Counted from the first letter of the stretch, positions 12,336-38,152 are shown. The stretch: DNA of 64,000 nucleotides from an uncultured Haliea sp. (GCA_963977485.1 CAXBOW010000020.1:151-64150); one strand, 5' to 3'. Notes: generated from the sequence alone by a model not told the origin. Numbers and translations: made by a program.

Positions 12336-12788
12336 ATGGATCATTCCCTGTATTTCGAAGATCTTGTGGTCGGGCAAAGTTTTGAAAGCACCGCCCGAAC
12401 TATTACTGAAACGGACATGACCTTTTTTTCCATGCTTTCTGGTGACTGGAACCCCATTCATTGTGATAAGCAGTTTTCAGAGAATACCCGGTTTGGCGAG
12501 CGTCTGGTCCACGGAGCCTTTGGTATAGCTGTTGCTACTGGAATGATGCATGCCTTGGGTATTTTCGAGAAGTCTGCCGTAGCGATGATGTCCATCAGTG
12601 ACTGGAAGTTTCTGAAACCGATCACCATCGGAATGACTCTCCGGCTACGTCTTACCATCCTCCAAGCTGAAGCCGGAGAGAGTAAGCGGGTTGGTCGCGT
12701 TGACCGGCGTCTAGAGCTGATAAACCAGAACGGCGAAGTTGTTCAGAGTGGCGAATCCGATATGTTGATCCTGAAGAAGTCGGCCTGA
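12336..12788 (+). CDS. MaoC-like (R)-specific enoyl-CoA hydratase/dehydratase (single hotdog)
   Basis: 150 aa with the hydratase-2 motif LSGDWNPIHCD. It starts 2 nt after the ligase stop. Confidence 0.9.
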   Translation: MDHSLYFEDLVVGQSFESTARTITETDMTFFSMLSGDWNPIHCDKQFSENTRFGERLVHGAFGIAVATGMMHALGIFEKSAVAMMSISDWKFLKPITIGMTLRLRLTILQAEAGESKRVGRVDRRLELINQNGEVVQSGESDMLILKKSA

Positions 12789-12826
12789 TTTCGGTTTGTC
12801 CCATCTGCTAATAGTTTGGAGGAAGC

Positions 12827-16952: not shown

Positions 16953-17768
16953 TTAGCCGGCGCGATCAATAATAGTTCTGGCCATTGCGATCACTGGAGC
17001 GTCAACCATCTGCCCCTCAACTTTGAACGCCGCACCACCTGACTTGGCGGCCGCCATAATCTTACGGGCCCACTCCACTTGCTCAGGATCCGGAGAAAAA
17101 CCGGCCTGCACGGGCCCAATCTGCTTCGGATGGATACACAGCATGCCTGCAAAACCCATGTTCCGAGCCCAGCGTGCCCGCCCGAGAACCGCCTTTTCAT
17201 CATCGAAAACCGGGAAAACAGTATCGATGGGCGCCATTAAACCGGCCGCGCGCGAGCTGACCAGAAGCTGATAGCGGCAATGGTTAATAACAGCCTCCGC
17301 TCCCTCGGTATTGCCTTCAATACCGAGGTTATCACTGAGATCCAGGCCGCCATAACTCAGCCGCTCGACCCCAGGCGCTGCGGCAATTTCGTTGAGGGCA
17401 ATCAGGCCGCGAGCTGATTCGATCAGCGGAATAATGGCCTTACCAGAACTGGCCACGGCGTTAATGTCACTCGCCGATTCGGCTTTTGGCAATACAATGC
17501 CGGTTACCTTCGCATGGCGTTTACACAACGCCAGGTCTGCGTCGAAGCCCGCAGTCCCTCGGGCGTTGATACGCACGTATATCGGAGCACCCTCATGGGC
17601 AGCAAGAAAAGCATCCAAAGCCTCACGGGCGGAATCCTTGGCATCCGCTGGCACGGCATCCTCCAGATCCACGATCACGGCTCCGGCGCCACTGGCGATC
17701 GCCTTGGGAATGCGGTCTGGTCGAGAGGCCGGCACAAAGAGCATGGTTTTCAAATCTCTGCCTGTCAT
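16953..17768 (-). CDS. HpcH/HpaI aldolase - citrate lyase beta (CitE)-like acyl-CoA lyase (citramalyl-/malyl-CoA lyase type)
   Basis: 271 aa with MLFVPASRPDRIPKAIASGAGAVIVDLEDAV, the typical N-terminus of the CitE family. Confidence 0.85.
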   Translation of the reverse strand: MTGRDLKTMLFVPASRPDRIPKAIASGAGAVIVDLEDAVPADAKDSAREALDAFLAAHEGAPIYVRINARGTAGFDADLALCKRHAKVTGIVLPKAESASDINAVASSGKAIIPLIESARGLIALNEIAAAPGVERLSYGGLDLSDNLGIEGNTEGAEAVINHCRYQLLVSSRAAGLMAPIDTVFPVFDDEKAVLGRARWARNMGFAGMLCIHPKQIGPVQAGFSPDPEQVEWARKIMAAAKSGGAAFKVEGQMVDAPVIAMARTIIDRAG

Positions 17769-17801
17769 GGTCAGGTTCCTGTTATCTCTATTGCGTTAAT
17801 G

Positions 17802-19001
17802 TCAGATCACACCGTTATTTGTTAACTGGTCGATCCGATTCCGGTCAAAGCCGAGCTGCTCCAGAATAAGGGTGCTGTGTTCGCCCAGTGCAGGCACGGC
17901 AGAAACCGCATCGGGAAACCACAGTCCGGGCGCCCTCAGAGCTGGCAACGGCCCCGCCGGCGTTGCCACTTCCAGCCAACGGTTACGGGCAGCCAATTGC
18001 GGATGCTGCCAGACCTGCTCCATGTTATTGACCGACGCATTGGCAATACCCGCCGCATCCAGGCGACGCACTACTTCGTCCAGCGTCATCCCGGAAAAGA
18101 CCTCTCTGATGAGTGCTCCCAGCTGAGCCCGGTTCGCCGATCGCCGAGAGTTATCAAGGTAACGCTGATCCTGAGCCAACTCCGGACGCTCCAGCACCTG
18201 TTCGCAAAAACCCCGCCATTCGCGGTCGTTCTGCAACCCCAGCATCACCGTTGTGCCATCCCCGACCGGGAAGGGGCCATAAGGGTAGATGGAGGCATGG
18301 GAGGCTCCCGTTCTGGCGGGAGGCGGCGCCCCGTCATAGCCGTAGTACATGGGGTAACCCATCCACTCCACCAGGCTCTCCAGCATGGACACATCAATGT
18401 GGCTGCCTTCGCCGGTTCGCCCCCGCAACAACAGCGCCGATAGAATGGCATTGCAGGCATACATTCCCGCGGCAATGTCCGCCACCGAACAGCCCGCCTT
18501 CGCCATACCATCTTCATCCGGTGTTCCGGTCACAGACAAAAAACCGCTCTCGCTCTGGATCAACAAGTCATAGGCTTTCTTGTCCCCATAGGGGCCACCC
18601 TGGCCATAACCTGAAACATCACAGACAATCAGCTTCGGATACTGTTCATGCAGCTCACCGAACGAAAGCCCCATGCGGGCTGTAGCGCCAGGTGCCAGGT
18701 TCTGCACCAGGACATCGGCTTCTGCCAGCAACCGATGAAGGATCTCCTGACCCTCCGTCGACTTCAGGTTCAGGGTCAGGCTTTCCTTGGAGCGGTTGGC
18801 CCATACAAAGTGGGAGGAAAACCCGTTCACTCTGTCGTCGTATGCCCGGGCGAAATCACCACCGTCAGGACGCTCAACCTTGATCACTCGCGCGCCCTGC
18901 TCCGCCAGCTGGCGGGTACATAGAGGCGCGGCAACGGCCTGTTCCAGCGAAACCACTGTCACCCCTTCCAGTGGGAGCGTCTTATTTTTGCTTGTTGTCA
19001 C
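17802..19001 (-). CDS. Family III CoA-transferase (CaiB/BaiF family)
   Basis: 399 aa with LEGVTVVSLEQAVAAPLCTRQLAEQGARVIKVERPDGGD, the canonical family III N-terminus. Confidence 0.9.
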   Translation of the reverse strand: MTTSKNKTLPLEGVTVVSLEQAVAAPLCTRQLAEQGARVIKVERPDGGDFARAYDDRVNGFSSHFVWANRSKESLTLNLKSTEGQEILHRLLAEADVLVQNLAPGATARMGLSFGELHEQYPKLIVCDVSGYGQGGPYGDKKAYDLLIQSESGFLSVTGTPDEDGMAKAGCSVADIAAGMYACNAILSALLLRGRTGEGSHIDVSMLESLVEWMGYPMYYGYDGAPPPARTGASHASIYPYGPFPVGDGTTVMLGLQNDREWRGFCEQVLERPELAQDQRYLDNSRRSANRAQLGALIREVFSGMTLDEVVRRLDAAGIANASVNNMEQVWQHPQLAARNRWLEVATPAGPLPALRAPGLWFPDAVSAVPALGEHSTLILEQLGFDRNRIDQLTNNGVI

Positions 19002-19026
19002 AACAACCCTCCCTCTGCTGCCTGTG

Positions 19027-20190
19027 TCAGAACGACCGGGGCAACTCCAGCAGATGCTCAGCCACGTATGACAGGATCAGGTTGGTGGAGATGGGCGCTA
19101 CCTGATACAAACGAGTTTCACGGAACTTCCGCTCCACGTCGTACTCATTGGCAAACCCGAACCCACCGTGTGTTTGCATGCACACGTTTGCGGCCTCCCA
19201 GGATGACTCGGCCGCCAAATACTTGGCCATGTTGGCGCTAGCGCCGGCGTTTCGGCCACTGTCATATTCCTCACAGGCGCGCCAGCGCATCAGATCAGCC
19301 GCTTCGACATTTATGTGGGCTTTGGCGATAGGAAACTGGACGCCCTGGTTCTTGCCAATTGGCCGACCAAACACTTCACGCTCGCTGGCATATTTGCGGG
19401 CTTTTTCGATAAACCAGCGACCGTCACCAATGCACTCAGCGGCGATCAAGGTGCGCTCGGCATTAAGGCCATCGAGAATATAGCGAAAGCCCTTGCCTTC
19501 TTCTCCAATCAGGTTTTCAACTGGAATTTCCAGGTTATCGAAGAAGAGCTCATTGGTTTCATGGTTCACCATATTGGCAATTGGCTGCACAGTAAGGCCA
19601 TTACCGACAGCATGGTGGAGATCAACAATAAAAATCGACATGCCTTCGGATTTACGACGCACTTCTTCCAAGGGAGTAGTGCGGGCAAGCAGAATCATCA
19701 GGTCGGAGTGCTGAACCCTTGAAATCCACACCTTCTGTCCATTGACGATGTATTTGTCGCCCTTGCGCACAGCCGTGGTTTTGATTTTGGTGGTATCTGT
19801 ACCGGTCGTGGGCTCTGTCACCGCCATGGACTGCAAACGCAACTGCCCAGCGGCGAGTTTTGGCAAATATTTCTGCTTTTGCTCTTCACTGCCGTGGCGT
19901 AGCAAGGTAAACATGTTGTACATCTGGCCATGAACCGTGCCTGAGTTGCCACCCGCGCGGTTTACTTCTTCCAGAATGACAGAGGCTTCTGCAAGCCCGA
20001 GCCCGGAGCCACCGTATTCCTCCGGAATCATGGCCGCCAACCAGCCAGCTTCTGTCATCGCCGTGACAAATTCTTCCGGGAACGCTTTGCGCTCGTCTAC
20101 ACCACGCCAGTATGCTGCATCAAAGTTTTGGCACAGACCACGGACACCCTCTCGAATCTCTTCATATTCCTGTAGAGCCGGATTAATCAT
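19027..20190 (-). CDS. Acyl-CoA dehydrogenase
   Basis: 387 aa with MAVTEPTTGTDTT and GQKVWISR. The ACAD C-terminal domain ends ...LELPRSF. There is a 4-nt overlap with the upstream hydratase gene. Confidence 0.9.
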   Translation of the reverse strand: MINPALQEYEEIREGVRGLCQNFDAAYWRGVDERKAFPEEFVTAMTEAGWLAAMIPEEYGGSGLGLAEASVILEEVNRAGGNSGTVHGQMYNMFTLLRHGSEEQKQKYLPKLAAGQLRLQSMAVTEPTTGTDTTKIKTTAVRKGDKYIVNGQKVWISRVQHSDLMILLARTTPLEEVRRKSEGMSIFIVDLHHAVGNGLTVQPIANMVNHETNELFFDNLEIPVENLIGEEGKGFRYILDGLNAERTLIAAECIGDGRWFIEKARKYASEREVFGRPIGKNQGVQFPIAKAHINVEAADLMRWRACEEYDSGRNAGASANMAKYLAAESSWEAANVCMQTHGGFGFANEYDVERKFRETRLYQVAPISTNLILSYVAEHLLELPRSF

Positions 20191-21026
20191 TCGCTTTTCT
20201 CCTTAAATTCAATTTCTGCTTCATGGGCCGGACCATCTTCGTTAGCAGCCCAGAGTATGGCTTTACCGTCACCGCTGACTTGACCTTCTACATTGAAAGG
20301 CTTGTCCACCGTCAACGGCCTTAATCCTCTGTACGACAGGCGCACCGGAATGCGTCCCGGGTTAGCATCCAGAAAAGCCTGCACCATCAGCGTGGCAATC
20401 ATCGGGCCATGAACAACCAGGTCGGGGTACCCCTCAACCTCGGTGGTGTAGGGCCGGTCGTAATGAATGCGATGCCCATTAAACGTTACTGCGGAATAAC
20501 GAAACAGGAGCAACGGCGAAGGTATAACCTGCTCACTCCACTCAGCTTCCGCGACCGGTTTATCCAGAAACAGCTTCGGGGCCGCAGGCGCTTTGTAAAC
20601 GATGTCTTGTTCTTCACTCAGGCACAGCTCACCATTCTGGCGATAGTGGTGCTCAACCGTCACAAACAGTAATTTGCCCGAGCGGCCGGTTTTTTCGGTG
20701 ACCGATTTGATACGAGACTGTCTTTCAGCGCGCTGGCCGATTTGAAGGGGCTTGAGAAACTCCACCCGTCCACCTGCCCACATGCGGGTGTTACCCTCAG
20801 ACTTCGGCAAGAAGTCACCTGGAGCTATGTGACCATCCGGCCCGGTTCCGGAAGGGGGCGCAGGTATCTGGAAGAACGCCCAATGCCAAAGAGGGCAAAG
20901 AGCATCGCCCTCTTGTGGAGCAGGTCTCGCCAGCATGGCGGCAATACGACTGGCGAGCGAGGTATCAAGCGCATCAACGCAGGATTCCGTCTTGCCGATC
21001 CAGTCCTCAGGTGTTTTTGACATCAA
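20187..21026 (-). CDS. Double-hotdog (FAS1-like dehydratase N-domain + MaoC-like) enoyl-CoA hydratase; itaconyl-/mesaconyl-CoA hydratase-like
   Basis: 279 aa. Its length, the WHWAFF... N-domain, a C-terminal hotdog (LVVHGPMIATLM) and its operon context support the call. The family-level call is moderately secure; substrate assignment is inference. Confidence 0.7.
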   Translation of the reverse strand: MMSKTPEDWIGKTESCVDALDTSLASRIAAMLARPAPQEGDALCPLWHWAFFQIPAPPSGTGPDGHIAPGDFLPKSEGNTRMWAGGRVEFLKPLQIGQRAERQSRIKSVTEKTGRSGKLLFVTVEHHYRQNGELCLSEEQDIVYKAPAAPKLFLDKPVAEAEWSEQVIPSPLLLFRYSAVTFNGHRIHYDRPYTTEVEGYPDLVVHGPMIATLMVQAFLDANPGRIPVRLSYRGLRPLTVDKPFNVEGQVSGDGKAILWAANEDGPAHEAEIEFKEKSE

Positions 21027-21191
21027 GCTACCTCTATCAATACGTATTCTGGCTTTTTAACTTTGAGAATAATGCCGGTATACCATGGAGTATTGAATTC
21101 GATTTTCCTCAAGGGTGCGTTTGGTTTCCATGAACACCCCCCCATGGTTTAGAATGGCAACCCCCTTGTTAGCTTGCTGTCGATACCCACT

Positions 21192-22097
21192 ATGCATTTT
21201 GATATTCCCGACTTACGCCTGTTTATCCATGTTGCTGAAGCTAACAGCCTGACCGGCGGAGCCAGGAGGGCCAGCCTGTCGACCGCTGCCGCCAGCATGC
21301 GTATCAAGGCATTTGAAGGTCAGCTAGGCAGCCGCCTGTTTTATCGGGACAGCCAGGGTGTTGAACTGACGCCCGCTGGCCACGACCTGCTGGTGCATGC
21401 CAGATCCATCATGCGTCAGGTGGACCATATCAAGGATGAGTTCTCCCAATATACGGAAGGCCAGTCCGGCCATATCCGCATATTCGCCAACACCACCGCA
21501 GTGAGCGATTTCATGCCGGATGTGTTGGCGCGCTTTCTTGTTGCCCGCCCGGGAGTAACCATTGATCTCCAGGAACGCCTCACCAATGACATCGTAAGGG
21601 GCGTGATCGATGGCTCAACCGACCTTGGCGTGGTGGCCGGAGCGGTGACGGCGAAAAAACTTGAAATCATTCCTTTTAATGTTGACCGGCTAGTGGTTGT
21701 TACACCTCACGATCATCTTCTGGCGGGACGCAAAAGCATAACGTTTCAGGAAACCCTGAATTACCCTCATATCGGACTGCGGGAAGGCAGCACCCTATTC
21801 AATTTCTTGCGGGGGCAAGCCAATGAAATTAACTCCCAACTGCAGATGCGAATACAGGTTTTCGGGTTTGAATCAGCCTGCCGCATGGTCAGCCGTGGCG
21901 TGGGTATCGGGATACTGCCCCGCTCCATCGCACACCGCTACGCGAAGTTCATGGAGATTTCCATCATCGAGCTCGAGGAAAGCTGGGCGCAGCGAGAACG
22001 CAGCCTTATTGTGAGAGAACTGGATGCACTACCTAAGTGTGGCAAGGAGCTGGTTGAGCAAATTCGCGCTCAGGCCAGCTTGACAACGCCCCCCTGA
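21192..22097 (+). CDS. LysR-family transcriptional regulator
   Basis: Contains MHFDIPDLRLFIHVAEANSLTGGARRASLSTAAASMRIKAFEGQLGSRLFYR (wHTH). I chose ATG 21192 over the track TTG at 21174. It is divergent from the hydratase operon. Confidence 0.9.
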   Translation: MHFDIPDLRLFIHVAEANSLTGGARRASLSTAAASMRIKAFEGQLGSRLFYRDSQGVELTPAGHDLLVHARSIMRQVDHIKDEFSQYTEGQSGHIRIFANTTAVSDFMPDVLARFLVARPGVTIDLQERLTNDIVRGVIDGSTDLGVVAGAVTAKKLEIIPFNVDRLVVVTPHDHLLAGRKSITFQETLNYPHIGLREGSTLFNFLRGQANEINSQLQMRIQVFGFESACRMVSRGVGIGILPRSIAHRYAKFMEISIIELEESWAQRERSLIVRELDALPKCGKELVEQIRAQASLTTPP

Positions 22098-22171: not shown

Positions 22172-23374
22172 TCAGGCACGCTCAAAAATCGCAGCTACAC
22201 CCTGTCCACCACCGACGCACATAGTTTCCAACCCGTAACGGCAGTCTCTTCTTTTCATCTCATGAAGCAAGCTTGTCATAATGCGAACGCCCGTAGCGCC
22301 AATGGGGTGGCCTAGAGAAATTCCGGAGCCGTTAACGTTGAGGCGATCATGGTCGTTCCAGCCCCACTCTTTGAGGACGGCAAGCACCTGGCAGGCGAAG
22401 GCTTCATTCACTTCCACAAGCCCCATATCATCGAAACCAAGACCCGTCTTGCGGAAAAGCTTTTCAACTGCGGGCACCGGACCAATACCCATGGTCGCAG
22501 GATGACAACCTACCGACGCCCAGCCCACCATGAAAGCCATCGGATCCAGATCAAGCTCGGCCAATCGATCTTCGGACACAACGAGGCAAGCGGCCGCTGC
22601 ATCGCTTTGCTGGCTGGCATTACCGGCAGTAACCGTACCGCCTTTTATCAGGGGATTCAGTTTTGCAAGCGTTTCCATCGAAGTTCCGGGGCGAATGCCT
22701 TCATCCCGCAAGAACGGGAGCGGGTCCGCCTTACGCTGAGGGATATTGAGCTGGACGACCTCCTCATCAAAGCGGCCTTCATCCCATGCAGCCGCGGCCC
22801 TTTGGTGGCTGCGTACTGCATAGGCATCGGCCTCCTCGCGGGAAATACTGTATTTCTCCGCAAGATTTTCTGCAGTTTCAATCATGCCGGAAATATAACC
22901 GAAACGGTCCTCAGGTTGGGACCTTTCGCGGCCGCGCTCCAGACGGTCATGCATGGTAAAGGAACCCGCTTTTTTTCCCCAACGCATATCAGTCGAGTAG
23001 TACTCGATGTTGCTCATGCTCTCTACACCGCCGGCAACAACCACATCGCAAGCTCCGGACTCGACCATCATCACAGCGTTAATGACGGCCTGCAGGCCCC
23101 CACCACAACGACGATCCAGCTGCATACCCGGCACATGCTCCGGCAGCCCGGCCTGCAATGCTGCCCAACGACCAACACAAGGAACTTCGCTGTTGGCGTA
23201 GGACTGGGCGATCACCACATCCTCGATCAGGGCAGGGTCAATCGATGAACGACTGATAGTTTCCTTAACCACCGTGGCGATCAGATCTTCAACCGATACC
23301 GGTCTTAATGTCTTGCCAAATGCACCCACGCCGGTGCGGACCGGCGTAATAATGGCTGCTCGTCGTTGTTGCAT
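22172..23374 (-). CDS. Thiolase (acetyl-CoA C-acyltransferase / 3-oxoacyl-CoA thiolase)
   Basis: 400 aa with DRRCGGGLQA (nucleophile Cys region), NEAFA, GHPIGATG and CVGGGQG. Confidence 0.9.
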   Translation of the reverse strand: MQQRRAAIITPVRTGVGAFGKTLRPVSVEDLIATVVKETISRSSIDPALIEDVVIAQSYANSEVPCVGRWAALQAGLPEHVPGMQLDRRCGGGLQAVINAVMMVESGACDVVVAGGVESMSNIEYYSTDMRWGKKAGSFTMHDRLERGRERSQPEDRFGYISGMIETAENLAEKYSISREEADAYAVRSHQRAAAAWDEGRFDEEVVQLNIPQRKADPLPFLRDEGIRPGTSMETLAKLNPLIKGGTVTAGNASQQSDAAAACLVVSEDRLAELDLDPMAFMVGWASVGCHPATMGIGPVPAVEKLFRKTGLGFDDMGLVEVNEAFACQVLAVLKEWGWNDHDRLNVNGSGISLGHPIGATGVRIMTSLLHEMKRRDCRYGLETMCVGGGQGVAAIFERA

Positions 23375-23430
23375 TGTGTCACCTCAAGAATCTTGTTTTG
23401 TTAGTTGGGCAGAAGGTCTGAACTGAAGCC

Positions 23431-23712
23431 TTACTCACTCAGAGCGCTTGGGTGCTCGTTCATGGGTGTGATGCTCACGTCCATATAGGGAAAGAGCGGG
23501 AGAGACGTCAGCAAGTCATGGAGCTCCTGATTCGAGTCCACATCAAATACACTCACATTGGAATATTTCCCTGTAACCCGCCACAGATGTGGCCACTTCC
23601 CTTGGCGCTGTATTTCCAAGGCACGCTGTTTTTCTTCTTCCTTGATTCGTGCAAACTCGTCCGCCGCCAAGTGGGTAGGTGGATTTACTTTCATCTGTAC
23701 AAGAAATAGCAT
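23431..23712 (-). CDS. Muconolactone delta-isomerase (CatC/MmlJ) family protein
   Basis: 93 aa, MLFLVQMKVNPP...WPHLWRVTGKYSNVSVFDVDSNQELHDLLTSLPLFPYMDVSITPM. It is collinear with CatC as I remember it (MLF.V.M.V..P...W.HLWR..G.Y.N.SVFDV.S...LH..L..LPLFPYMD). Confidence 0.85.
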   Translation of the reverse strand: MLFLVQMKVNPPTHLAADEFARIKEEEKQRALEIQRQGKWPHLWRVTGKYSNVSVFDVDSNQELHDLLTSLPLFPYMDVSITPMNEHPSALSE

Positions 23713-23755
23713 GGTTTCACTCCTTGGTTTTTATAGGTTTTTGGAACCCCGATAT

Positions 23756-24082
23756 TCAGTGGAGCTCCCGGGTATAAATCGGCTTAAGTTGTCCAATAAA
23801 GGTCTTGCCGTGTTCAAACCATTCTTTACGAATATCTGAAGCAAGGTACTCCTCGTACTTTTCGGAGCTTTCAAACCAGCACTCGGCAACCGCATCAAAC
23901 GGCCCGATATCGAGAAAAGGTACGTGGGTGTCTGACGGCTCGTCGGCCACCAACCGCACTTCATATTTGTGCAGCGCAGGAACGTTATGAGACATGTCGT
24001 AATGAACTTGGCATTCTTCAGCAAATTTTGCCTGGGTCATGCCTTGTGGCCTTACTAGAAGGTAGACAACTCTGATCATCAT
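23756..24082 (-). CDS. EthD-like dimeric alpha+beta-barrel protein (108 aa)
   Basis: [19 protein letters not shown]...HKYEVR matches the pattern of EthD-domain proteins. The ATG overlaps the stop of the CoA-transferase B gene (TAATG). Confidence 0.7.
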
Positions 24083-24756
24083 TAATGTTCCTTAAGTGTC
24101 TCTGCCAGCATGGAAAAATCAACCTCCACACCGGTATGCTGCTGAATTTGTTCGAAGGTTAGTTCAGGGGCGATATACAGAGCTTTCACTTTGTTTCCGC
24201 CAGGGCTGGGCTCAAACGTTCCCATGTTTGTGTAAATGCGGGTAACACAGCCAAGCCCCGTAGCTGGATAGCTTAACTCGGGGACAATCTTGGGATTACC
24301 CTCTCGATCCACATGATCCATCATCACGAAAATCTGTCGGGCTCCAATGGCAAGGTCCATGGCACCACCAACCGCCGGCACTGCTTGAGGGTCACCGGTA
24401 TGCCAGTTGGCGAGGTCCCCATTGGAAGAAACCTGGAACGCCCCAAGCACACAGATGTCGAGATGACCACCGCGCATCATTGCGAAGGAGTCTGCATGAT
24501 GAAAAAATGCCGCGCCCGGCAGTAACTTGATAGGCACCTTGCCTGCGTTAATCAGGTCTGGGTCCTGCTCGCCTTCCGGCGCGTCAATCCAACGACCCAG
24601 CACGCCATTTTCTGTGTGCAATATGACTTCTTTGTCCTCGCAACCCAAACGATTGGCCACCAACGTGGGCAAGCCAATACCCAGGTTCAGGTAAGCACCT
24701 TCCGGCACATCCGCTGCCACTCGTCCGGCCAGCGACAGTTTCTCTTCTGCATTCAT
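24082..24756 (-). CDS. 3-oxoacid CoA-transferase, subunit B
   Basis: Active-site motif [10 protein letters not shown] (S/T-E-N-G). I chose ATG 24756, which has AAGGTGA upstream, over the GTG at 24780. Confidence 0.9.
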
Positions 24757-24792
24757 GACTTTCACCTTTATACCGCCCACGTGAAAGCGGAC

Positions 24793-25455
24793 TCAAACTT
24801 TATAGAAATAATCCACGTAAATACCGGGGGTTACGACATTTTCCGGGTCCATCTCGCCAGCCAGCATTACTTCACTGACCTCCACAACAGTGATGTCAGC
24901 GGCTGAGGCCATCACCGGCCCAAAATTGCGGGCGGTCTTGTTGTAAATGAGGTTACCGAATCGGTCTGCAGCCTTGGCCTTTATAAGGGCAACATCAACC
25001 CTTATAGGGTGCTCCAGCACATAGTGAACCCCATCTATCTCACGGGTTTCCTTTCCTTCGGCCAGAGCGGTTCCATGACCGGTCGGAGTGAAAAACGCAC
25101 CAATACCTGCTCCGCTGGCACGTAACCGCTCAGCCAGATTCCCTTGGGGAACCAGCTCCAGCTCCAATTCACCTTTTCGATAAAGCTCCTCAAAAACCCA
25201 GGCATTCTTCATACGGGGAAACGAGCAGACAATTTTACTCACCTTGCCCGCTTTCAGCAGCGCAGCAATACCCTCTTCGTTTTGCCCCGCATTGTTACTT
25301 ACTATCGTCAGGTTTTTCGCATCACTTCGTTCAATAAGCGTATCGATCAGTACATTCGGAGAACCGGCCCCACCAAAACCCCCAATGGCAATCGTATCGC
25401 CATCCTTGATCCGGGAGATCGCATCCTCAGGACAGCTAATCTGTTTGTTGATCAT
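24793..25455 (-). CDS. 3-oxoacid CoA-transferase, subunit A
   Basis: 220 aa with DGDTIAIGGFGGAGSP, VSNNAG and ELVPQGNLAERLRA, typical of AtoD/ScoA/PcaI. Confidence 0.9.
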   Translation of the reverse strand: MINKQISCPEDAISRIKDGDTIAIGGFGGAGSPNVLIDTLIERSDAKNLTIVSNNAGQNEEGIAALLKAGKVSKIVCSFPRMKNAWVFEELYRKGELELELVPQGNLAERLRASGAGIGAFFTPTGHGTALAEGKETREIDGVHYVLEHPIRVDVALIKAKAADRFGNLIYNKTARNFGPVMASAADITVVEVSEVMLAGEMDPENVVTPGIYVDYFYKV

Positions 25456-25565
25456 TAGATTCCCTTTACCTTTCAGATATAAAAACGCAGCAGAACTATA
25501 AAACCTTTATCTAATATACAATTAGCTCATGATATAAAGGCTCTATTAATATAATAAACCATCAC

Positions 25566-26849
25566 TTATCCGGAAGTTGACGGCAGCCAAAGAACAAGAT
25601 CCGGAAAAACAATAAGCAGAAAGACCAAAACAAGGAGCGAAAGTACATAGACCATCACCCCGGAAAATATTTTCTCAACAGGAATATTGGCAGACTTGGA
25701 AACGACAAAAACATTTATCCCCACTGGCGGTGTCACTATGCCAATCTCCGCCAGCAAGATAACAATAATGCCGAACCACAGGGGGTCGAACCCCAGACTG
25801 ATTACGAGAGGCAAGACAACGGGAACGGTCAGAATCAGTATAGATATCAGGTCGAGGAACAAGCCAAGCACCAGGTAAAGCACTACAATCACTGCCAGTA
25901 TTACATAGGGGGAAACATCCAAACTGCCAGCCCACGCCACCATATCTCGTGTAATGCCCGTAAAAGTAATGAAATAACCAAAAATATGGGCACAGACAAT
26001 AATCAGACCAATCATGGCGGAGATGGAACAGGTATTAAATAAAGCCTCTACAAAACGTGATTTCGTTAAATTACCTGACTTCACCGCAATCAACAGTGCC
26101 CCGAACGCACCTAAACCTGAAGCTTCAACCGGCGTGGCAATTCCCGTATAGATAAGCCCGGTCACCACCAGAAACAGAAGCACAAATGGAGCCGCGACCT
26201 TCAGCGACTGGATTTTCTCCACAAAACTGTACTTCACGCTCTGCTCAGGCAGAGGGTTTCGCAGCAATAATGCCTTGATGGTCAGAGCAATGGTCAATGC
26301 CACCAAAATGCCCGGCACGATCCCTGCGATTAGCAGGTCCGCGATGCTGACACCACTCAGAAGCCCATAAAAAATCAGGGCCACACTGGGAGGAATCAGC
26401 ATTGCGATAGTGCCCGAAATAGCAGCGATACTGCCTGACATGCCATCACTGTATCCCTGCTCTCGCATGGCAGGAATACTGGTTTTCGCAAGGGTAGCTG
26501 CTGCTGCAGTACTGGAACCGGAGATAGCCCCGAACGCGGCCCCTGTCACCACAGTAGCAATACCAATGCCACCGCGAACGTTACTGGTCCATTTTGCTAT
26601 GGCATTGAACAATGAAGATGTAATGCCACTCACACCCATAAATTCTGCCATGAGGATGAACATGGGTATCGTGAGCAATTCATAAGTAGTCAAAGCAGAG
26701 CCGGGAGATGCGGTCAAAATACCTACCAACACCCCAGCGTTGGTCGCCAGGTAGATGCCCAGGGAGCCAGCCAAGGCGAGGCTGATCGCAACTGGAACAC
26801 CAAACACCAGCAACACAAACAGCGTTATAAAAGGAAGATAGGCTGTCAT
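25566..26849 (-). CDS. dctM: TRAP transporter large permease (DctM family)
   Basis: 427 aa and polytopic, with DctM blocks. ATGA overlap with dctQ. Confidence 0.9.
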   Translation of the reverse strand: MTAYLPFITLFVLLVFGVPVAISLALAGSLGIYLATNAGVLVGILTASPGSALTTYELLTIPMFILMAEFMGVSGITSSLFNAIAKWTSNVRGGIGIATVVTGAAFGAISGSSTAAAATLAKTSIPAMREQGYSDGMSGSIAAISGTIAMLIPPSVALIFYGLLSGVSIADLLIAGIVPGILVALTIALTIKALLLRNPLPEQSVKYSFVEKIQSLKVAAPFVLLFLVVTGLIYTGIATPVEASGLGAFGALLIAVKSGNLTKSRFVEALFNTCSISAMIGLIIVCAHIFGYFITFTGITRDMVAWAGSLDVSPYVILAVIVVLYLVLGLFLDLISILILTVPVVLPLVISLGFDPLWFGIIVILLAEIGIVTPPVGINVFVVSKSANIPVEKIFSGVMVYVLSLLVLVFLLIVFPDLVLWLPSTSG

Positions 26850-27376
26850 TTCTCAGCCCCCACCAGCAACTGCAGATGGTTGAAGCTGAGAATTACCAAC
26901 CGCAGGGCAAAGGCCAGCGAACTAATAAATACAATGAAGTCTCCCGGCCACATAGGCCATGGAATCACCCCCCCCATCACATCGCCATCCCGCCAGGCAG
27001 AATAGGCTTCGATCAGGTAAAACCAGGAAATATAGGCAAATAGCACAACGGATATCAGCCCAACCAGAAACAACACTGACCCGCGCAACCGCCGGTTAAT
27101 GTATGACACGAAGTAATCCACCTTCAGGTGGGCTCCAGTCCGAAGAGCGTAAGAAAAAGCCAAAAAATAGGAGCCTGGCAGCAGATACAATACAATAAAA
27201 TCAAAAGACCAACTGAGCGGCTTTGAGAGTACATACCGCATAAAAACATCCACGCAAGTAACCGCCATTGCCGCCAGAATCATTAATGCCGCAATTGCCA
27301 CCAGTGCGTTTTCCAAGTACCGCACAGGGCACTCCAAATATTTAACCGAAGCGGAAATACTGGTTGACGCATTCAA
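26846..27376 (-). CDS. dctQ: TRAP transporter small permease (DctQ family)
   Basis: The hydrophobic core starts at ...ENALVAIAALMILAAMAV. The track ORF (to 27535) overlaps the upstream MBL gene. I propose TTG 27376, preceded by AAAGGGG; the start is uncertain. Confidence 0.7.
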   Translation of the reverse strand: MNASTSISASVKYLECPVRYLENALVAIAALMILAAMAVTCVDVFMRYVLSKPLSWSFDFIVLYLLPGSYFLAFSYALRTGAHLKVDYFVSYINRRLRGSVLFLVGLISVVLFAYISWFYLIEAYSAWRDGDVMGGVIPWPMWPGDFIVFISSLAFALRLVILSFNHLQLLVGAEK

Positions 27377-27422
27377 AGTGGGCCCCTTTATTGTTATCAA
27401 AATCGAATAATTGAACGGACAG

Positions 27423-28313
27423 TTACCAAGTGGCTGGCTCAAACAGGAAGCCGTCACCCTGGCGGCGTACATATCCGCAATAGGGAGCCCCAAAGTGAAC
27501 CGGCAGTATGAGTGCAGACTCGTCAGCCAGTTCATTCAGCATTTTCAAACGTACTTCACGTGCCTTTTCCTGCCAGATGCAATAACCAGAGTTGAACTCA
27601 GGACGCATGATCTGCAGAGGGCTATGAAAAACATCACCAGAAAAAACACCCACTTCGCCCTTGGACTCCAGCCGGAAAATTACCTGCCCCGGGCTATGGC
27701 CTTCTGCAGAGTGCACTGTCAGACACTCGGCAATTTCTTCGCCTGGCCGCATCATCTTTGCCAATCCCGCGTCGACAATGGGCATTACGCTGTCGAAGAA
27801 AGAATCGCCAAACACGTCAATGACGCCCGGCTCCTTATTCTTGCCTTCTTTACAAAAGGTAAAATCATCAAGGGGGAAGTGGTAGCTGGCATTGGGAAAT
27901 GTTGGAACCCAGCGGCCGTCCTGCCAAGTGGTATTCCAGCCCACGTGATCCGCGTGCAAATGGGTTATCACTACATGTGTGACATCTTCAGGAGCCGCTC
28001 CCGCAGCAACCAGCCATTCACGGACGAGGGTGTTAAGCATGTGCATGCGAGGAATACTCTCGCGTGACTTGAAATTGCCCACCCCAGTATCGATTACAAT
28101 AATGTTTGTACCAGCCTGGACAATCCAGAACTGAATGGTAACTATCAGCTTGCCCATATGGGGCACCCAATGATTCGGTGCCATCTGACTTTCCAGCCGG
28201 TCAATATCCGCGCGCTCTGCTTCAGGAAACAGGAAAGCCGGGTCGTGAGTCGGACCGGAATACTCGATAATATTCGTGACCTTGACGTCACCGATTTTTC
28301 GAGTCTGAATCAT
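27423..28313 (-). CDS. MBL-fold metallo-hydrolase, lactonase-like
   Basis: 296 aa with VVITHLHADHVGW (HxHxDH) and downstream His/Asp ligand positions. It is the first gene of the TRAP/CoA-transferase operon. Confidence 0.85.
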   Translation of the reverse strand: MIQTRKIGDVKVTNIIEYSGPTHDPAFLFPEAERADIDRLESQMAPNHWVPHMGKLIVTIQFWIVQAGTNIIVIDTGVGNFKSRESIPRMHMLNTLVREWLVAAGAAPEDVTHVVITHLHADHVGWNTTWQDGRWVPTFPNASYHFPLDDFTFCKEGKNKEPGVIDVFGDSFFDSVMPIVDAGLAKMMRPGEEIAECLTVHSAEGHSPGQVIFRLESKGEVGVFSGDVFHSPLQIMRPEFNSGYCIWQEKAREVRLKMLNELADESALILPVHFGAPYCGYVRRQGDGFLFEPATW

Positions 28314-28600
28314 ACTGACACCTATAGTATTATTTATAAAAATATTGCAATCGATATTCTTAAATAAATCAGAGAATCTAGATTACATTTAATATGTTCA
28401 GTGGCAGCAAGCATGTCAATAAAAAAAAGCTGAACCCACCTTTAACAACAGGTTAAATCAAAGCACCTTTATACTTAGCCTGCCCCCCCTTTTTAACCAA
28501 GCATTAAGACGCACTAAATAAATTAAAAATACAGATCCCCAGTAACTCTGCTAATTTTGAAAAACGCCATTCCTAAAAAACCTAACAAAAAGGATACTTC

Positions 28601-29620
28601 ATGAACAATAAAAAACGTCTCTTCATTGGGTGCGTGTCAGCAGCCCTGGCCATCGGGTCGGCAACTAACGCCAGCGCCCAAGACAAGATAACTTTAAGAT
28701 TTGCCGACTGGATGCCCGAATCTGCCTTTACTACGACCTACGGCGCCAAGGCATTCATGGAAAAAGCACAGGAGCTCTCTGGTGGCCATATCAGTTTCCA
28801 GTATTTTCCCGCTGAACAACTGGGCAAAGGGTCGGAGGCTCTTACTCTGTTGCAGTCAGGAGTAGCTGATATCGCAAACGTCGCGCCAGCCTACCTCTCT
28901 GAACACCTGCCTCTTTCGGCTGTTGTGGAACTTCCAGGCATAGTTACCGACTCTTGTACTGCGGCGGACAAATTCTACAATCTGGTTCAACCTGGAGAAC
29001 CGCTTTATGAGGCGGAATTCAAGAGAAAAGATGTTCGCCCTCTGTTTACTGCCAACCTTGGCCCCTATCGCATTCTCACCAATGGAAAAAGCCTGTCGAC
29101 ACCATTGAATATTTCAGGTCTGAAGCTCCGCACTGCTGGCGGAGCCATGGCTATGACAGCCGATCGGCTAGGCGCAAACCCCATCCGCATGCAGGGTTCT
29201 GACGTTTTGCCCTCTCTGTCCCGCGGCACTCTGGATGGTGTCTTCTGGGGCCTGATCAGCATCGAGGACTGGAGTCTGGAAACGGCGCTGGACCAAATGG
29301 TTCCAAACCTGAGTATTGGCAGCTTCAATGTTACTTATTCTATCAGTGACCGGACCTGGGAAAAGCTTTCCCCGGCTAACCGGGAAATACTGGTAAAAGC
29401 CGGTCAGTACGCCAATCAGAATCACTGTAACTATGTGAATCAGGCCGAAAAACAGGCCATCTCCGATTTAGAAAAGAAACACGGCATAGCACCTCTATAC
29501 CTGCAAGAAGCTGAACTGAAGCACATCCAGGAAGACCTTGTCCAGGTACACAAGGACTGGGCTGAACCGCTAGAAAAACGCGGGCTGCCAGCAAATGCCA
29601 TTGTAGAACAAATGCTCTGA
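28601..29620 (+). CDS. dctP: TRAP transporter substrate-binding protein (DctP family)
   Basis: 339 aa with a signal peptide (...SATNASAQD). It is divergent from the MBL-dctQM operon. Confidence 0.85.
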   Translation: MNNKKRLFIGCVSAALAIGSATNASAQDKITLRFADWMPESAFTTTYGAKAFMEKAQELSGGHISFQYFPAEQLGKGSEALTLLQSGVADIANVAPAYLSEHLPLSAVVELPGIVTDSCTAADKFYNLVQPGEPLYEAEFKRKDVRPLFTANLGPYRILTNGKSLSTPLNISGLKLRTAGGAMAMTADRLGANPIRMQGSDVLPSLSRGTLDGVFWGLISIEDWSLETALDQMVPNLSIGSFNVTYSISDRTWEKLSPANREILVKAGQYANQNHCNYVNQAEKQAISDLEKKHGIAPLYLQEAELKHIQEDLVQVHKDWAEPLEKRGLPANAIVEQML

Positions 29621-29640
29621 TCCCTTAAGACCAGTCACAA

Positions 29641-29671
29641 CAATAACCTCCGCTAACTCAGGAGGTTATTG
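29641..29671 (+). terminator. Hairpin downstream of dctP (11-bp stem, no clear U-run)
   Basis: CAATAACCTCC-gctaactca-GGAGGTTATTG, a perfect inverted repeat 21 nt after the stop. Confidence 0.5.
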
Positions 29672-29755
29672 TCTAAATAACTCGGGAGCATCTTGTGGCC
29701 CAATCAATCGAATTCCTGTAGCTTACTGTTGGGCTTTCTTGCTACTGGGGTATTG

Positions 29756-30652
29756 ATGGCGATCAAGTATGACCTGACAGATTTCCGGCTATTCATCAAG
29801 ATTGCAGAGTCCGAGAGCATGTCGAGGGGCGCTGAGCAATGTCACATGTCTGTACCCGCTGCAAGCAACCGGATGCGCAACCTGGAAGATTTGCTCGGGC
29901 TAAAGTTGCTACAACGAAGCTCCCATGGGGTGACACTTACCAACGAAGGTAGGGTCTACCTGCATCATGCCCGCAAGATCACCTCACAGTTGGAAGTGCT
30001 CAGCGGAGATCTCCAGGAATTTGCCCTCGGCATCACCGGTCAACTCAGGCTTCTCGCCAACACTACTGCCATCACCGAGTTGCTACCAGCTATACTGGGA
30101 GAGTACTTGCAGTCGCATCCCAACGTGCGTATCGAGATGAAAGAAAAGGTCAGCGAGGAGATTGTTCGTACAGTAAAGGAAGGAGGTGCAGATCTTGGCA
30201 TCGTCTCGGGCAACGTGGTCACCGCCGGATTGCAGACACTGACTTTTGCAAAGAGCCGCTTGGTGGTTATCTGTCCAATAGGGCACCCAATCTCGAAGTT
30301 CGACAATATCCGTTTTGAGGACTGCGTTTCTTATCCCCTTATCTCGCTACTGGAGGGCTCAGCGATCCATCAGTTTCTGACGAAAGAAGCAGAAAAGCTG
30401 CATATCACTCTAAACATCCGCGTTCAGGTAGCGAGCTACGATGCCATTTATCGAATGGTGGCCAACAATCTAGGTATCGCAATTATTCCTCAGCTGGGAT
30501 TTGCCCGCCACAAGGGCACCCGTAATATCAAACAGATCGAACTAACTGACAATTGGGCAGAGCGTAATTTCCAACTCTGCGCCGAAAACTTCGACACCCT
30601 TCCAACCTTCGTCCGTGAATTCTGTGAAATCCTGCGGTTACGATACCTGTAG
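29756..30652 (+). CDS. LysR-family transcriptional regulator
   Basis: Contains MAIKYDLTDFRLFIKIAESESMSRGAEQCHMSVPAASNRMRNLEDLLGLKLLQR (wHTH). I chose ATG 29756 over the track TTG at 29693. Confidence 0.9.
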   Translation: MAIKYDLTDFRLFIKIAESESMSRGAEQCHMSVPAASNRMRNLEDLLGLKLLQRSSHGVTLTNEGRVYLHHARKITSQLEVLSGDLQEFALGITGQLRLLANTTAITELLPAILGEYLQSHPNVRIEMKEKVSEEIVRTVKEGGADLGIVSGNVVTAGLQTLTFAKSRLVVICPIGHPISKFDNIRFEDCVSYPLISLLEGSAIHQFLTKEAEKLHITLNIRVQVASYDAIYRMVANNLGIAIIPQLGFARHKGTRNIKQIELTDNWAERNFQLCAENFDTLPTFVREFCEILRLRYL

Positions 30653-36814: not shown

Positions 36815-38152
36815 TCAGAATGGCAGGGTAAGAAAAGCACAGAGCAGGCTGCAGAGGGTCAGCGCGATTAACGAATACTTCAGGCTCCATTCGTAAGAAG
36901 CCCGGTGGGCGCTATACCCCGTGCAGCGTTCCAGCAGCAGTGAGTTGGCAGAATAAGGCGTGCCAGCAATGGTAATACCCCAGCCGGTAACCATACCCAG
37001 GCCCAACCCCAGCAAGCCATAGTCTGGCCAGATCGGCCCGAGAATACTGCCTGCGAGAGTTCCGGAAATAATCGGGTTTATCCCCACTGCACCGCCAGCA
37101 AAAAACAACCAGGGAACTGCGATAGCCACCATTGGATATGCCCACACTGGCAGACTGAAGTCCATCCCCAGCCAGGTCAGCGCGAAGACCCCGATGATTC
37201 CGCCGAGAAAGGAAGACCCGCCCATAATGACCAGTTCATTATTCATGGGCGCCAACGACGGCATGGACAAAATGCCGCCCATAAGCCGACGATAAGCCAG
37301 GCCAATGATCACAGCTGACAGACAACTAAGAGTGACAGCCTGGGAGTAAACCAGCCCGGCCTGAGAGCTCAGCGCAAAAGCCCCGGAGCAAATGAGGGCA
37401 ATAATGGCGACAAACCGGAGCCAGGGGAAAAGTGCAGATTCATGATCGTCCGGCAGCACCGCCACCTCAGCACTGGCAGGCTCCCGCTCTCGTGCGAGCG
37501 CCCCAGCGAGCAAGTAGAGGATGGCCACCGGTAAACCCACCGCAATCAACTTCCAGCTCGACAACTCTGGCAGGAAGGTAACTGTCATAACTATCGCGAT
37601 GGACAAAGGAGAGGCCATGGGCGAAGCGCCAAAGCCACGCACAACCGCCCGAGCAGCATTGCGGGCTAGCGGACTGTCGCCTTGCTCCTTGACCTGCACC
37701 CCAATCATGGTGGCTACAACGCCTACAGCTCCGAAGTTCAAGGGGATCGATAACAGTGCTGTGCCGAAGGTCATACCCAGGTAACGAACGAGGGAGTTGC
37801 CGGCAAACAGGCTGCGGGAGATAACCTTCAGATCGTCGGACTGCCCCATCACGGCGGATAACAACATGACGGTGATAATCAAAGCACCAATTCGTGCCAT
37901 GTTGCCGACAGCCGAAGGCAAAGCTGACGGCTCAATCGCGAGTGCTGTTATAGTCAGCAGGATGATCAATGAGAATATTACCTTGCCCACCAGGCGCAGG
38001 TTGCCCCAGCCCAACCCAATTGCGAGGCAGGCAAACACCGTGGCGGCCACCGCATTGCCCGGTATAGACGTGGCAATGCCGGCAGCCAGGGCCAGATAAG
38101 CCAGAATGGATCGGGGCCGGTTCAGGCCGTCCGATTGCAAAAACACCTTCAT
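36815..38152 (-). CDS. Uncharacterised polytopic membrane protein (putative carboxylate permease), paralogue of 49965-51344
   Basis: 445 aa and strongly hydrophobic throughout. It shares blocks with 49965-51344: LN(F/I)GA..V..TM; RGF(G/C)..P...P.S(I/V); PELS; and G(T/A)(P/S)P(Y/F)(S/T)A(N/S). I cannot place it in a named family. Confidence 0.75.
   Translation of the reverse strand: MKVFLQSDGLNRPRSILAYLALAAGIATSIPGNAVAATVFACLAIGLGWGNLRLVGKVIFSLIILLTITALAIEPSALPSAVGNMARIGALIITVMLLSAVMGQSDDLKVISRSLFAGNSLVRYLGMTFGTALLSIPLNFGAVGVVATMIGVQVKEQGDSPLARNAARAVVRGFGASPMASPLSIAIVMTVTFLPELSSWKLIAVGLPVAILYLLAGALAREREPASAEVAVLPDDHESALFPWLRFVAIIALICSGAFALSSQAGLVYSQAVTLSCLSAVIIGLAYRRLMGGILSMPSLAPMNNELVIMGGSSFLGGIIGVFALTWLGMDFSLPVWAYPMVAIAVPWLFFAGGAVGINPIISGTLAGSILGPIWPDYGLLGLGLGMVTGWGITIAGTPYSANSLLLERCTGYSAHRASYEWSLKYSLIALTLCSLLCAFLTLPF

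Follow-up and report, generated by a model that had tools for sequence, protein, structure and literature searches.

4-Methylmuconolactone is a dead-end product excreted by most ortho-cleaving strains (PMC4321380). The mml pathway, a modified 3-oxoadipate route that consumes it, was worked out in Pseudomonas reinekei MT1, where MmlI and MmlJ isomerize the lactone, MmlL opens 4-methyl-3-oxoadipate enol-lactone, MmlFG and MmlC lead on to methylsuccinyl-coenzyme A (CoA) and acetyl-CoA, and MmlR is a LysR regulator (Marin et al. 2010, summarized in PMC6449761). MmlH is described as a ‘muconolactone transporter’ (PMC3560178, Table 3). Here we analyze 64,000 nucleotides of DNA from an uncultured Haliea sp. 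(GCA_963977485.1 CAXBOW010000020.1:151-64150; hereafter the window), in which an mml cluster contains the genes of a tripartite ATP-independent periplasmic (TRAP) transporter, DctPQM, in place of mmlH. To our knowledge, work on mml has been confined to soil Pseudomonas, Cupriavidus and Rhodococcus; finding it complete in a marine Marinobacter clade, to which this locus belongs, extends the pathway to the ocean.

The original prediction for this DNA described an mml-like module rebuilt around a TRAP transporter. Every open reading frame (ORF) that it named is present at the coordinates and on the strand given below, and profile searches confirmed the superfamily of each. Its sequence details proved accurate as well: on direct reading, the stop codon of dctQ overlaps the start of dctM by 4 bp (ATGA), the mmlG stop and mmlI start are joined as TAATG, and the HTENG and HLHADH motifs are in place. 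The genes of the locus are as follows.

22172-23374, minus strand: mmlC, 4-methyl-3-oxoadipyl-CoA thiolase (Thiolase_N/C; 60% identity to MT1 MmlC)
23431-23712, minus strand: mmlJ, CatC-type methylmuconolactone double-bond isomerase (PF02426; 57% identity to MT1 MmlJ)
23756-24082, minus strand: mmlI, 4-methylmuconolactone methylisomerase, an alpha+beta-barrel protein of 108 aa (PF09448; 63% identity to MT1 MmlI)
24082-24780, minus strand: mmlG, family I 3-oxoacid CoA-transferase subunit B (PF01144; HTENG at residue 55; 62% identity to MT1 MmlG)
24793-25455, minus strand: mmlF, family I 3-oxoacid CoA-transferase subunit A (TIGR02429; 59% identity to MT1 MmlF)
25566-26849, minus strand: dctM, TRAP large membrane subunit (PF06808, TIGR00786)
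26846-27325, minus strand: dctQ, TRAP small membrane subunit (PF04290; start within 27325-27378)
27423-28313, minus strand: mmlL, 4-methyl-3-oxoadipate enol-lactone hydrolase of the metallo-beta-lactamase (MBL) fold (70% identity to MT1 MmlL; HLHADH at residue 118)
28601-29620, plus strand: dctP, TRAP periplasmic solute-binding protein (PF03480, NF037995)
29756-30652, plus strand: mmlR, LysR-type regulator, downstream of dctP on the same strand (HTH_1 and LysR_substrate; 57% identity to MT1 MmlR)

The seven Mml proteins are thus 57–70% identical to their orthologues in MT1 (locus L013), which served as the reference, and mmlJ, mmlFG, mmlC and mmlR are encoded together within 8.5 kb. The claim of an mml-type module is borne out by these values. 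Judged by its sequence, the locus is in fact a complete, true set of mml (modified 3-oxoadipate) orthologues, a firmer assignment than ‘mml-like’.

The position of MmlI had originally been assigned to an EthD-type protein. The 108-aa protein matches the Pfam MmlI family (PF09448) at 3e-49 and 166 bits (cut-off 29.6), while reaching only 17.6 bits against EthD (PF07110; cut-off 22) and 19.4 bits against TIGR02118 (cut-off 30.5). EthD-family identity is thereby ruled out, the label being correct at the level of fold or clan and wrong at the level of family. As a true MmlI is present, no new EthD-family methylisomerase is implied. Consistent with this assignment, the protein matches the 4-methylmuconolactone methylisomerases in the PDB (2ifx, 3hds, 3hf5 and 3hfk) at 1e-44 to 6e-47, with 2ifx at 6e-47, and is 60–69% identical to MmlI of Cupriavidus and Pseudomonas (64–69% for Cupriavidus). 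An alignment of 21 MmlI sequences has 44 invariant columns, among them the His, Tyr, His and Cys positions that we take to be catalytic.

Against the NCBIfam MmlI equivalog the protein scores 179.3 for a cut-off of 180, and this near miss of 0.7 bit probably explains why the name MmlI is missing from databases. Close relatives of MmlI are publicly labeled ‘hypothetical protein’ or ‘EthD domain-containing’, and MmlL is just ‘MBL fold metallo-hydrolase’. The latter label is shared by all members of the window MmlL’s 90%-identity cluster, which comprises M. iranensis, Marinobacter sp. 1_MG-2023, Marinobacter sp. GN3S48 and several metagenome-assembled genomes (MAGs). This grouping points to a Marinobacter as the organism behind the window. 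In public records, then, the Marinobacter mml clusters go practically without annotation.

The remaining enzymes were assigned in the same way. MmlJ matches PF02426 at 1e-37 and PDB entries 1mli and 4fpi at 1e-25 to 1e-29, exceeds the cut-off of TIGR03221 (134.2 for 130.6), and is closer to MT1 MmlJ (57%) than to a separate CatC-like copy in Acinetobacter pragensis L039 (46%). MmlF is well above its cut-off (TIGR02429, 325 bits for 128.5), and MmlG scores 243.3 on TIGR02428, which has a cut-off of 243.55. MmlC reaches 653 bits on NCBIfam NF004853 (cut-off 551) and fails the PcaF equivalog TIGR02430 (341 versus 597); as a Pfam scan of the large ORFs of the window found no PcaD/CatD-type hydrolase either, neither hallmark of the classical 3-oxoadipate (PcaD/PcaF-type) route was found here.

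For the MBL protein, the original prediction had proposed a comparison with MmlL, acyl-homoserine lactone (AHL) lactonases and 4-pyridoxolactonase. Its 70% identity to the genetically characterized MT1 MmlL extends over the full length, and it scores 65 bits against the AidB lactonase model (cut-off 360) and 18.5 bits against 4-pyridoxolactonase, so that it sides with MmlL and an AHL-lactonase or 4-pyridoxolactonase identity is ruled out. Its nearest PDB entries are of the MBL lactonase and methyl-parathion hydrolase types, at about 70 bits.

We searched 90 mmlI loci, 50 from a one-genome-per-species scan and 40 from metagenomes (the window is additional), with MT1 MmlH, using tblastn, and with the DctP and DctM of the window. 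MmlH lies immediately upstream of mmlI in 71 loci, DctPQM accompanies mmlI in 7, and no locus has both. Among the 50 genome loci, 44 have MmlH and two have TRAP genes (a Marinobacter MAG and M. fuscus NH169-3); among the 40 metagenome loci the counts are 27 and 5; co-occurrence is zero in either set. The 12 loci with neither carrier are short contigs or an orphan mmlI. All seven TRAP-type loci fall in the Marinobacter clade, with MmlI at least 76% identical to that of the window, which makes the eighth, and tblastn with MT1 MmlH gave no match in the window, L001 or L002. The proposal that a TRAP system stands in for the usual carrier is upheld by this distribution: the exchange is genuine and conserved within one lineage, making the locus a variant of a known pathway and not a system of a new type.

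Conservation of gene order had been put forward as a check, and order is indeed kept in relatives. The seven Marinobacter-type loci have mmlR and dctP on one strand and mmlL-dctQ-dctM-mmlF-mmlG-mmlI-mmlJ on the other, and the proteins do not fall into unrelated clades; recurrence in seven independent loci argues that the arrangement is not due to chance. All three transporter components exceed their Pfam cut-offs and are encoded together: DctM matches PF06808 at 1e-86 and TIGR00786 with 306 (cut-off 268), DctQ matches PF04290 at 3.5e-22 over residues 90–219 of a long ORF, and DctP matches PF03480 at 3e-36 and NF037995 with 105 (cut-off 50). DctM is 84–94% identical and syntenic in the seven Marinobacter-type loci and absent from all other mml loci. 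Relatives of DctP with at least 77% identity come only from Marinobacter or metagenome sequences, and the five that were placed (L001, L002, L057, L058 and L060) are in mml loci; the next relatives are at most 57% identical and lie in unrelated contexts.

DctP has an N-terminal signal peptide, the mature protein starting at about Gln27, and its R177, within LKLRTAGG, aligns with the Arg of the solved DctP proteins 4n6d, 5im2 and 4pgn, a residue presumably equivalent to Arg147 of SiaP. Because 4-methylmuconolactone is a monocarboxylate, it is chemically acceptable to a DctP with such an Arg clamp. The mutually exclusive replacement of MmlH by the TRAP system and membership in the operon make the lactone somewhat more likely than not to be the ligand of DctP. 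A search of the available papers gave nothing relevant that ties a TRAP system to muconolactones, and one for mmlH yielded unrelated papers only.

Two further observations concern TRAP systems. The closest paralogue of the mml-associated DctP (55–57%) belongs to a conserved, apparently uncharacterized cluster in Halomonas and Marinobacter (L052 1-6974, L053 1-5151, L101 596-9017) that encodes two family III CoA-transferases, an isochorismatase-family hydrolase, an HpcH-type lyase and DctQMP, with MaoC/FAS1-type hydratases in addition in L101. Within the window itself there are four more TRAP systems (4909-7899, 39553-42745, 42970-48227 and 57185-61596), three of DctP type and one in which a fused DctQM is paired with a TAXI-type (NMT1_3) binding protein; one set includes a tandem pair of dctP genes, and each of the four lies next to genes for CoA ligases, CoA-transferases or acyl-CoA dehydrogenases. 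As a whole, the window forms a single large island of CoA-dependent acid catabolism, and with five TRAP sets in 64 kb it is in character for this genome to have recruited a TRAP carrier.

Some gene models required adjustment. The mechanically delimited dctQ ORF of 229 aa, which runs into the MBL gene, needs shortening: the DctQ domain begins at its residue 90, the gene call on an identical contig gives 159 aa (26846-27325), and our overall estimate is about 159–176 aa. The shorter model leaves a gap of about 97 bp between mmlL and dctQ and no overlap with the MBL gene. Inside the operon, the intergenic gaps flanking dctQM are 97 and 110 bp; terminator-like matches across the region are no more numerous than expected by chance, and no convincing terminator breaks the minus-strand string. 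As homologues of MmlI all begin MIR..., the second ATG of mmlI, at 24079, may be its true start. For mmlR, the automatic call on the identical contig (L051 11246-12052) gives 268 aa and would drop the first 30 residues. HTH_1 spans residues 7–66 of the 298-aa form, and the 268-aa call cuts into it; on sequence grounds the start at 29756 is the better model.

The divergent intergenic region between mmlL and dctP is 287 bp long (28314-28600) and contains two candidate control elements.

28391-28419, minus strand: best sigma-70-like promoter, facing mmlL (TTGACA, 17-nt spacer, CATATT; 10/12 consensus matches)
28442-28456, no strand assigned: TTAACAACAGGTTAA, inverted repeat of the LysR T-N11-A type (pattern TTAAC-N5-GTTAA), candidate MmlR operator

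The promoter (28419-28391) is the top match of a regional scan, a consensus match only in a scan whose overall site count is not above chance. Its -35 element lies within a well-conserved block of three Marinobacter loci in which ATTGAC is invariant. This promoter implies a start site about 65 bp downstream of the center of the inverted repeat, an arrangement typical of LysR activator sites and one that makes the repeat a candidate operator. No other match to TTAAC-N5-GTTAA occurs in the 64 kb, where 0.00 are expected. When up to one mismatch is allowed, 7/7 Marinobacter-type loci have the box upstream of mmlL and 27 of 52 other loci, those of MT1 and Acinetobacter among them, have it upstream of mmlF, compared with only 1.2% of random 300-bp windows. 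Since the box recurs upstream of mmlF or mmlL in other genera, the TRAP genes, with dctQM inside the operon and dctP in the divergent dctP-mmlR unit, probably belong to the MmlR regulon.

Taken together, we consider it likely that this is a complete mml operon of Marinobacter type, with MmlH replaced by a tripartite TRAP system, and that the pathway works as follows. DctP would bind 4-methylmuconolactone, and perhaps also the 3-methyl isomer, in the periplasm via Arg177, and DctQM would import it, probably driven by Na+. Inside the cell, MmlI would shift the methyl group to convert the 4-methyl into the 3-methyl lactone, MmlJ would move the double bond to give 4-methyl-3-oxoadipate enol-lactone, and the MBL-fold MmlL would open the ring to 4-methyl-3-oxoadipate. 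MmlFG would then form the CoA ester, perhaps with methylsuccinyl-CoA as the CoA donor by analogy with the use of succinyl-CoA by PcaIJ, and MmlC would cleave it to acetyl-CoA and methylsuccinyl-CoA. One control region with its TTAAC-N5-GTTAA box would be shared by mmlL-dctQM-mmlFGIJC and the divergent dctP-mmlR, and MmlR probably activates from this box in response to 4-methyl-3-oxoadipate, as in MT1.

Next to mmlC lies a set of genes whose predicted products (16953-21026) would form a logical sink for the methylsuccinyl-CoA from MmlC.

16953-17768, minus strand: HpcH/CitE-type acyl-CoA lyase of the citramalyl-CoA lyase type, PA0883-like (HpcH_HpaI, 9e-32)
17802-19001, minus strand: family III CoA-transferase, proposed succinyl-CoA:methylsuccinate (itaconate-type) (CoA_transf_3, 2e-107)
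19027-20190, minus strand: (RS)-methylsuccinyl-C4-CoA dehydrogenase orthologue, PA0879 type (about 86% to PA0879)
20187-21026, minus strand: double-hotdog itaconyl-CoA/mesaconyl-C4-CoA hydratase, Ich type (PDB 8khg, 3e-95; FAS1_DH_region/Htd2)
21174-22097, plus strand: LysR-family regulator, divergent from the hydratase-dehydrogenase-transferase-lyase string (HTH_1 and LysR_substrate)

The family III CoA-transferase would put CoA on C4 of methylsuccinate, the dehydrogenase would produce mesaconyl-C4-CoA, the hydratase (S)-citramalyl-CoA, and the lyase acetyl-CoA and pyruvate. PA0879 has been characterized as a (RS)-methylsuccinyl-C4-CoA dehydrogenase (PMC12290011, 2025), in a paper with 0 occurrences of mml terms. 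The gene is printed in the supplement of PMC12290011 in a form damaged by optical character recognition; a frame-aware block comparison over 299 alignable residues gave about 86% identity to the window protein, whereas plain tblastn gave a misleading 38% owing to frameshifts in the printed gene. The dehydrogenase is also 84–86% identical to the acyl-CoA dehydrogenase beside mmlC in MT1 (84%) and many other Pseudomonas. A copy with at least 70% identity lies within 10 kb of mmlI in 40 of the 90 loci (27 of the 50 and 13 of the 40), usually together with the hydratase, and these loci include MT1, many other Pseudomonas, Acinetobacter, Pandoraea and Marinobacter.

The other members of the module show similar links. 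The hydratase matches the ‘Itaconyl-CoA hydratase’ 8khg over its full length and is 49–54% identical to the gene adjoining the acyl-CoA dehydrogenase in Pseudomonas loci (51% in MT1). The lyase matches the ‘acyl-CoA lyase beta chain’ entries 8khl/9nzb at 1.4e-79, full length, and reaches 144 bits on NCBIfam RipC_Ccl, under the equivalog cut-off; many Pseudomonas and Acinetobacter loci have a homologue of it (34–50%) no more than 10 kb from mmlI. For the family III CoA-transferase, the best PDB matches are the formyl-CoA transferase chain 10uh (238 bits) and SUGCT (225 bits), and it is 57–60% identical to the gene in the same place in Acinetobacter mml loci. The LysR protein has counterparts (82–84%) at the same place in Marinobacter loci L001 and L057 and, from its position, is presumed to regulate the module.

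Several observations weigh against the reconstruction. By carbon numbering, the CoA left after thiolysis by MmlC should sit on the carboxyl adjacent to the methyl-bearing carbon (C1), but the PA0879-type enzyme acts on the C4 ester (PMC12290011), so that a postulated step of CoA release and re-activation is needed between the modules. We propose that the transferase at 17802-19001 (re)activates free methylsuccinate at C4. An mmlK mutant of MT1 reportedly accumulates free methylsuccinate, which fits release of the free acid and its re-activation. In MT1, the thioesterase and MmlK could bridge the gap between C1 and C4; the window has just the family III CoA-transferase and no homologue of MmlK (an acetyl-CoA hydrolase/transferase) or of the TesB-type thioesterase. 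Both are also absent from Cupriavidus clusters, however, and so are not defining features of the family as a whole. Genes for a CoA ligase and a MaoC hydratase flank mmlC in other Marinobacter loci, so that the thiolase may serve more than one route. On the transport side, the best solved relative of DctP (76 bits) is uninformative on its ligand, and DctP paralogues that are 45–57% identical adjoin CoA-transferases, hydratases, lyases or CoA ligases in hosts that include Halomonas, other Marinobacter, roseobacters and Burkholderiales; these contexts suggest open-chain acids rather than lactones. The six nearest-paralogue contexts that we inspected have no lactonase or mml genes, and hence offer no ligand that could be transferred.

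One region of the window touches on the use of the thiolase. At 9336-13801, 8 kb from mmlC, lie genes for an SCFA_trans transporter, an AMP-forming CoA ligase, a MaoC hydratase and an NMO-family flavoprotein. Orthologues (81–91%; the ligase 63% in L058/L060) are interleaved with or adjoin mmlC in the other Marinobacter loci L001 (10967-16674), L057, L058, L060 and L056, and the mmlC thiolase may be shared with a second acid-degradation route.

The source of the lactone is a separate question from its uptake. The original prediction reported no catechol dioxygenase or muconate cycloisomerase within the 64 kb. This holds: the Pfam scan of large ORFs found no intradiol dioxygenase, muconate cycloisomerase or PcaD in the window, and neither of the first two was found in the 10 kb beyond each end, covered by identical metagenome contigs (about 84 kb in total). 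Its conclusion that the lactone must be imported went too far, as the gap in ring-cleavage genes spans about 84 kb only. An importer next to mmlI is the norm for mml clusters everywhere, and the scavenging of a dead-end product, as the prediction had it, is their standard reading rather than a new one. Cross-feeding on excreted lactone is plausible, and the work of Pieper and Knackmuss is said to have found the pathway through growth on externally supplied 4-methylmuconolactone.

Alternatively, the host could make 4-methylmuconolactone itself, with a catechol 1,2-dioxygenase and a muconate cycloisomerase elsewhere in its genome, and the TRAP system would recapture leaked lactone. Such a self-sufficient degrader is a serious possibility that we place a little short of even. 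It has a parallel in P. reinekei MT1, whose ring-cleavage genes presumably lie in other clusters: the scanned MT1 ORFs, about 10 kb upstream and 6 kb downstream of mmlI, include none. Moreover, mml clusters all include an importer, irrespective of any cleavage of catechols by their host. As to the ligand of the transporter, this alternative is compatible with our preferred explanation. A literature search on Marinobacter cat genes gave nothing specific. The combined proposition that DctP is specific for 4-methylmuconolactone (the first muconolactone TRAP), that these open-ocean Marinobacter lack catechol ortho-cleavage genes, that they depend obligately on cross-feeding with a lactone released stoichiometrically by other methylaromatic degraders and that this is the first marine sign of the pathway strikes us as doubtful when taken as a whole.

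A second alternative accepts the enzymes as true Mml proteins and assigns the TRAP system to an open-chain acid (4-methyl-3-oxoadipate, 3-methylmuconate, methylsuccinate or itaconate), with 4-methylmuconolactone arising inside the cell. Many characterized DctP-type proteins bind dicarboxylates or 2-oxoacids, and the methylsuccinate module is adjacent. The closest DctP paralogues, in the Halomonas and Marinobacter cluster described above, adjoin two family III CoA-transferases, an isochorismatase-family hydrolase and an HpcH lyase, and others adjoin a CoA ligase and an enoyl-CoA hydratase – contexts of di- or monocarboxylic acids. At 45–57% identity, however, a related binding protein is a poor guide to ligand. 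The TRAP genes are confined to loci without MmlH, where they lie within the mml operon rather than with the methylsuccinate module controlled by its own LysR protein (LysR2). Imported 4-methyl-3-oxoadipate would make MmlI, MmlJ and MmlL needless for that compound, and no cycloisomerase that could use imported muconate was found in about 84 kb. We therefore think this alternative unlikely, and an open-chain acid such as 4-methyl-3-oxoadipate or methylsuccinate an improbable ligand of DctP.

Finally, a conventional lower branch of the 3-oxoadipate (cat/pca) pathway, acting on unsubstituted muconolactone or beta-ketoadipate, with the TRAP system carrying beta-ketoadipate or a common dicarboxylate, is very improbable: MmlF and MmlG are 65% and 61% identical to a second CoA-transferase pair beside the CatC-like gene of A. 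pragensis L039, about equal to their identity to MmlFG, and MmlJ passes the generic muconolactone isomerase equivalog, but the locus has a true MmlI, the only known reaction of which is the shift from 4-methyl to 3-methyl, its ring opener is an MBL-type MmlL and not the alpha/beta-hydrolase PcaD/CatD, its thiolase matches MmlC and fails as PcaF, and the methylsuccinyl-CoA dehydrogenase next door makes sense only for a methylated route.

The mml pathway is rare: among word-indexed candidates from 5.8 billion sequences, MmlI forms 29 protein clusters at 90% identity. Metagenome contigs of up to 115 kb, from Tara Oceans and other sources, encode proteins 100% identical to those of the window. Should the TRAP binding protein indeed recognize the lactone, this would represent a new ligand class for TRAP transporters, and DctP would be a convenient soluble sensor for methylmuconolactones and a marker gene for cross-feeding in oil- or algae-associated consortia. 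The repeated linkage of a methylsuccinyl-CoA dehydrogenase module of characterized type to mml genes, in four genera, also exposes the problem of C1-CoA versus C4-CoA.

We also observed mmlI outside such operons. An orphan homologue in Stutzerimonas stutzeri A563/77 (L040 9992-10306; others in L043, L086 and L089-L092) shows 60% identity and matches Pfam MmlI at 5e-45, with no other mml gene within 10 kb. Its neighbors encode a TraI_2 helicase, transposase fragments, two flavin oxidoreductases of the old yellow enzyme type, a luciferase-like monooxygenase and a zinc alcohol dehydrogenase, and orphans of this kind may represent a mobile element carrying MmlI in a different chemical context.

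Other features of the window lie apart from the mml genes. The segment 14124-16878, between the methylsuccinate module and the NMO gene, encodes another MBL-fold protein, larger than MmlL (387 aa; B_lactamase-like_C domain; weak resemblance to Strvi_7410), and a long-chain-type acyl-CoA ligase, the two ORFs overlapping by about 86 bp. The ORFs 36815-38152 (445 aa) and 49965-51344 (459 aa) have no Pfam match at 1e-5; the former, which is called as a gene on an identical contig (L051 18215-19552), has a LIV-type binding protein gene on one side and a two-subunit CoA-transferase on the other.

Comparison with the described systems brings out which parts of the locus are shared. The operon of P. 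reinekei MT1 has the order mmlC, L, R, F, G, a thioesterase gene, H, I, J, K (PMC6449761). The window has the same seven Mml proteins, a PA0879-type dehydrogenase and an Ich-type hydratase next to mmlC, and a related TTAA(C/T)-N5-GTTAA box upstream. In MT1, however, a 441-aa MmlH of the major facilitator superfamily is encoded just upstream of mmlI, preceded by the TesB-type thioesterase gene, and mmlK follows mmlJ; the window has DctPQM and a family III CoA-transferase and lacks MmlH, the thioesterase and MmlK. Gene order differs as well, mmlR lying inside the MT1 operon and, in the window, on the opposite strand behind dctP.

The mmlLRFGHIJ clusters of Cupriavidus pinatubonensis JMP134 and C. 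necator H16 pHG1 (PMC6449761; PMC3560178) have MmlL, R, F, G, I and J in common with the window. They carry MmlH and no TRAP genes and, within 10 kb, neither mmlC nor the methylsuccinyl-CoA module. Acinetobacter loci (A. rudis L025 and A. pragensis L039) come closer in their accessory genes: directly beside mmlR-FG...IJ...C-L they have nearly the same set of methylsuccinyl-CoA dehydrogenase, lyase, hydratase and family III CoA-transferase (57–60%), while keeping MmlH and an MmlK-like gene and having no TRAP genes.

The accessory module itself resembles PA0878-PA0883 of P. aeruginosa and the itaconate/methylsuccinate cluster of C. necator (PMC12290011), with which it shares the dehydrogenase, the Ich-type hydratase and the PA0883-type lyase; its family III CoA-transferase may correspond to PA0882. 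In the window the module sits beside mml genes, a linkage on which that paper is silent, and no MmgE/PrpD-type methylsuccinate isomerase or PA0880-type gene was found among the scanned ORFs of the window. As for the transporter, none of the characterized or solved TRAP members is close to the DctP of the window, the best PDB match being at 76 bits, but its architecture is that of SiaPQM, DctPQM and TarPQM: three components, a binding protein with a signal peptide, the conserved carboxylate Arg, and overlapping dctQ and dctM.

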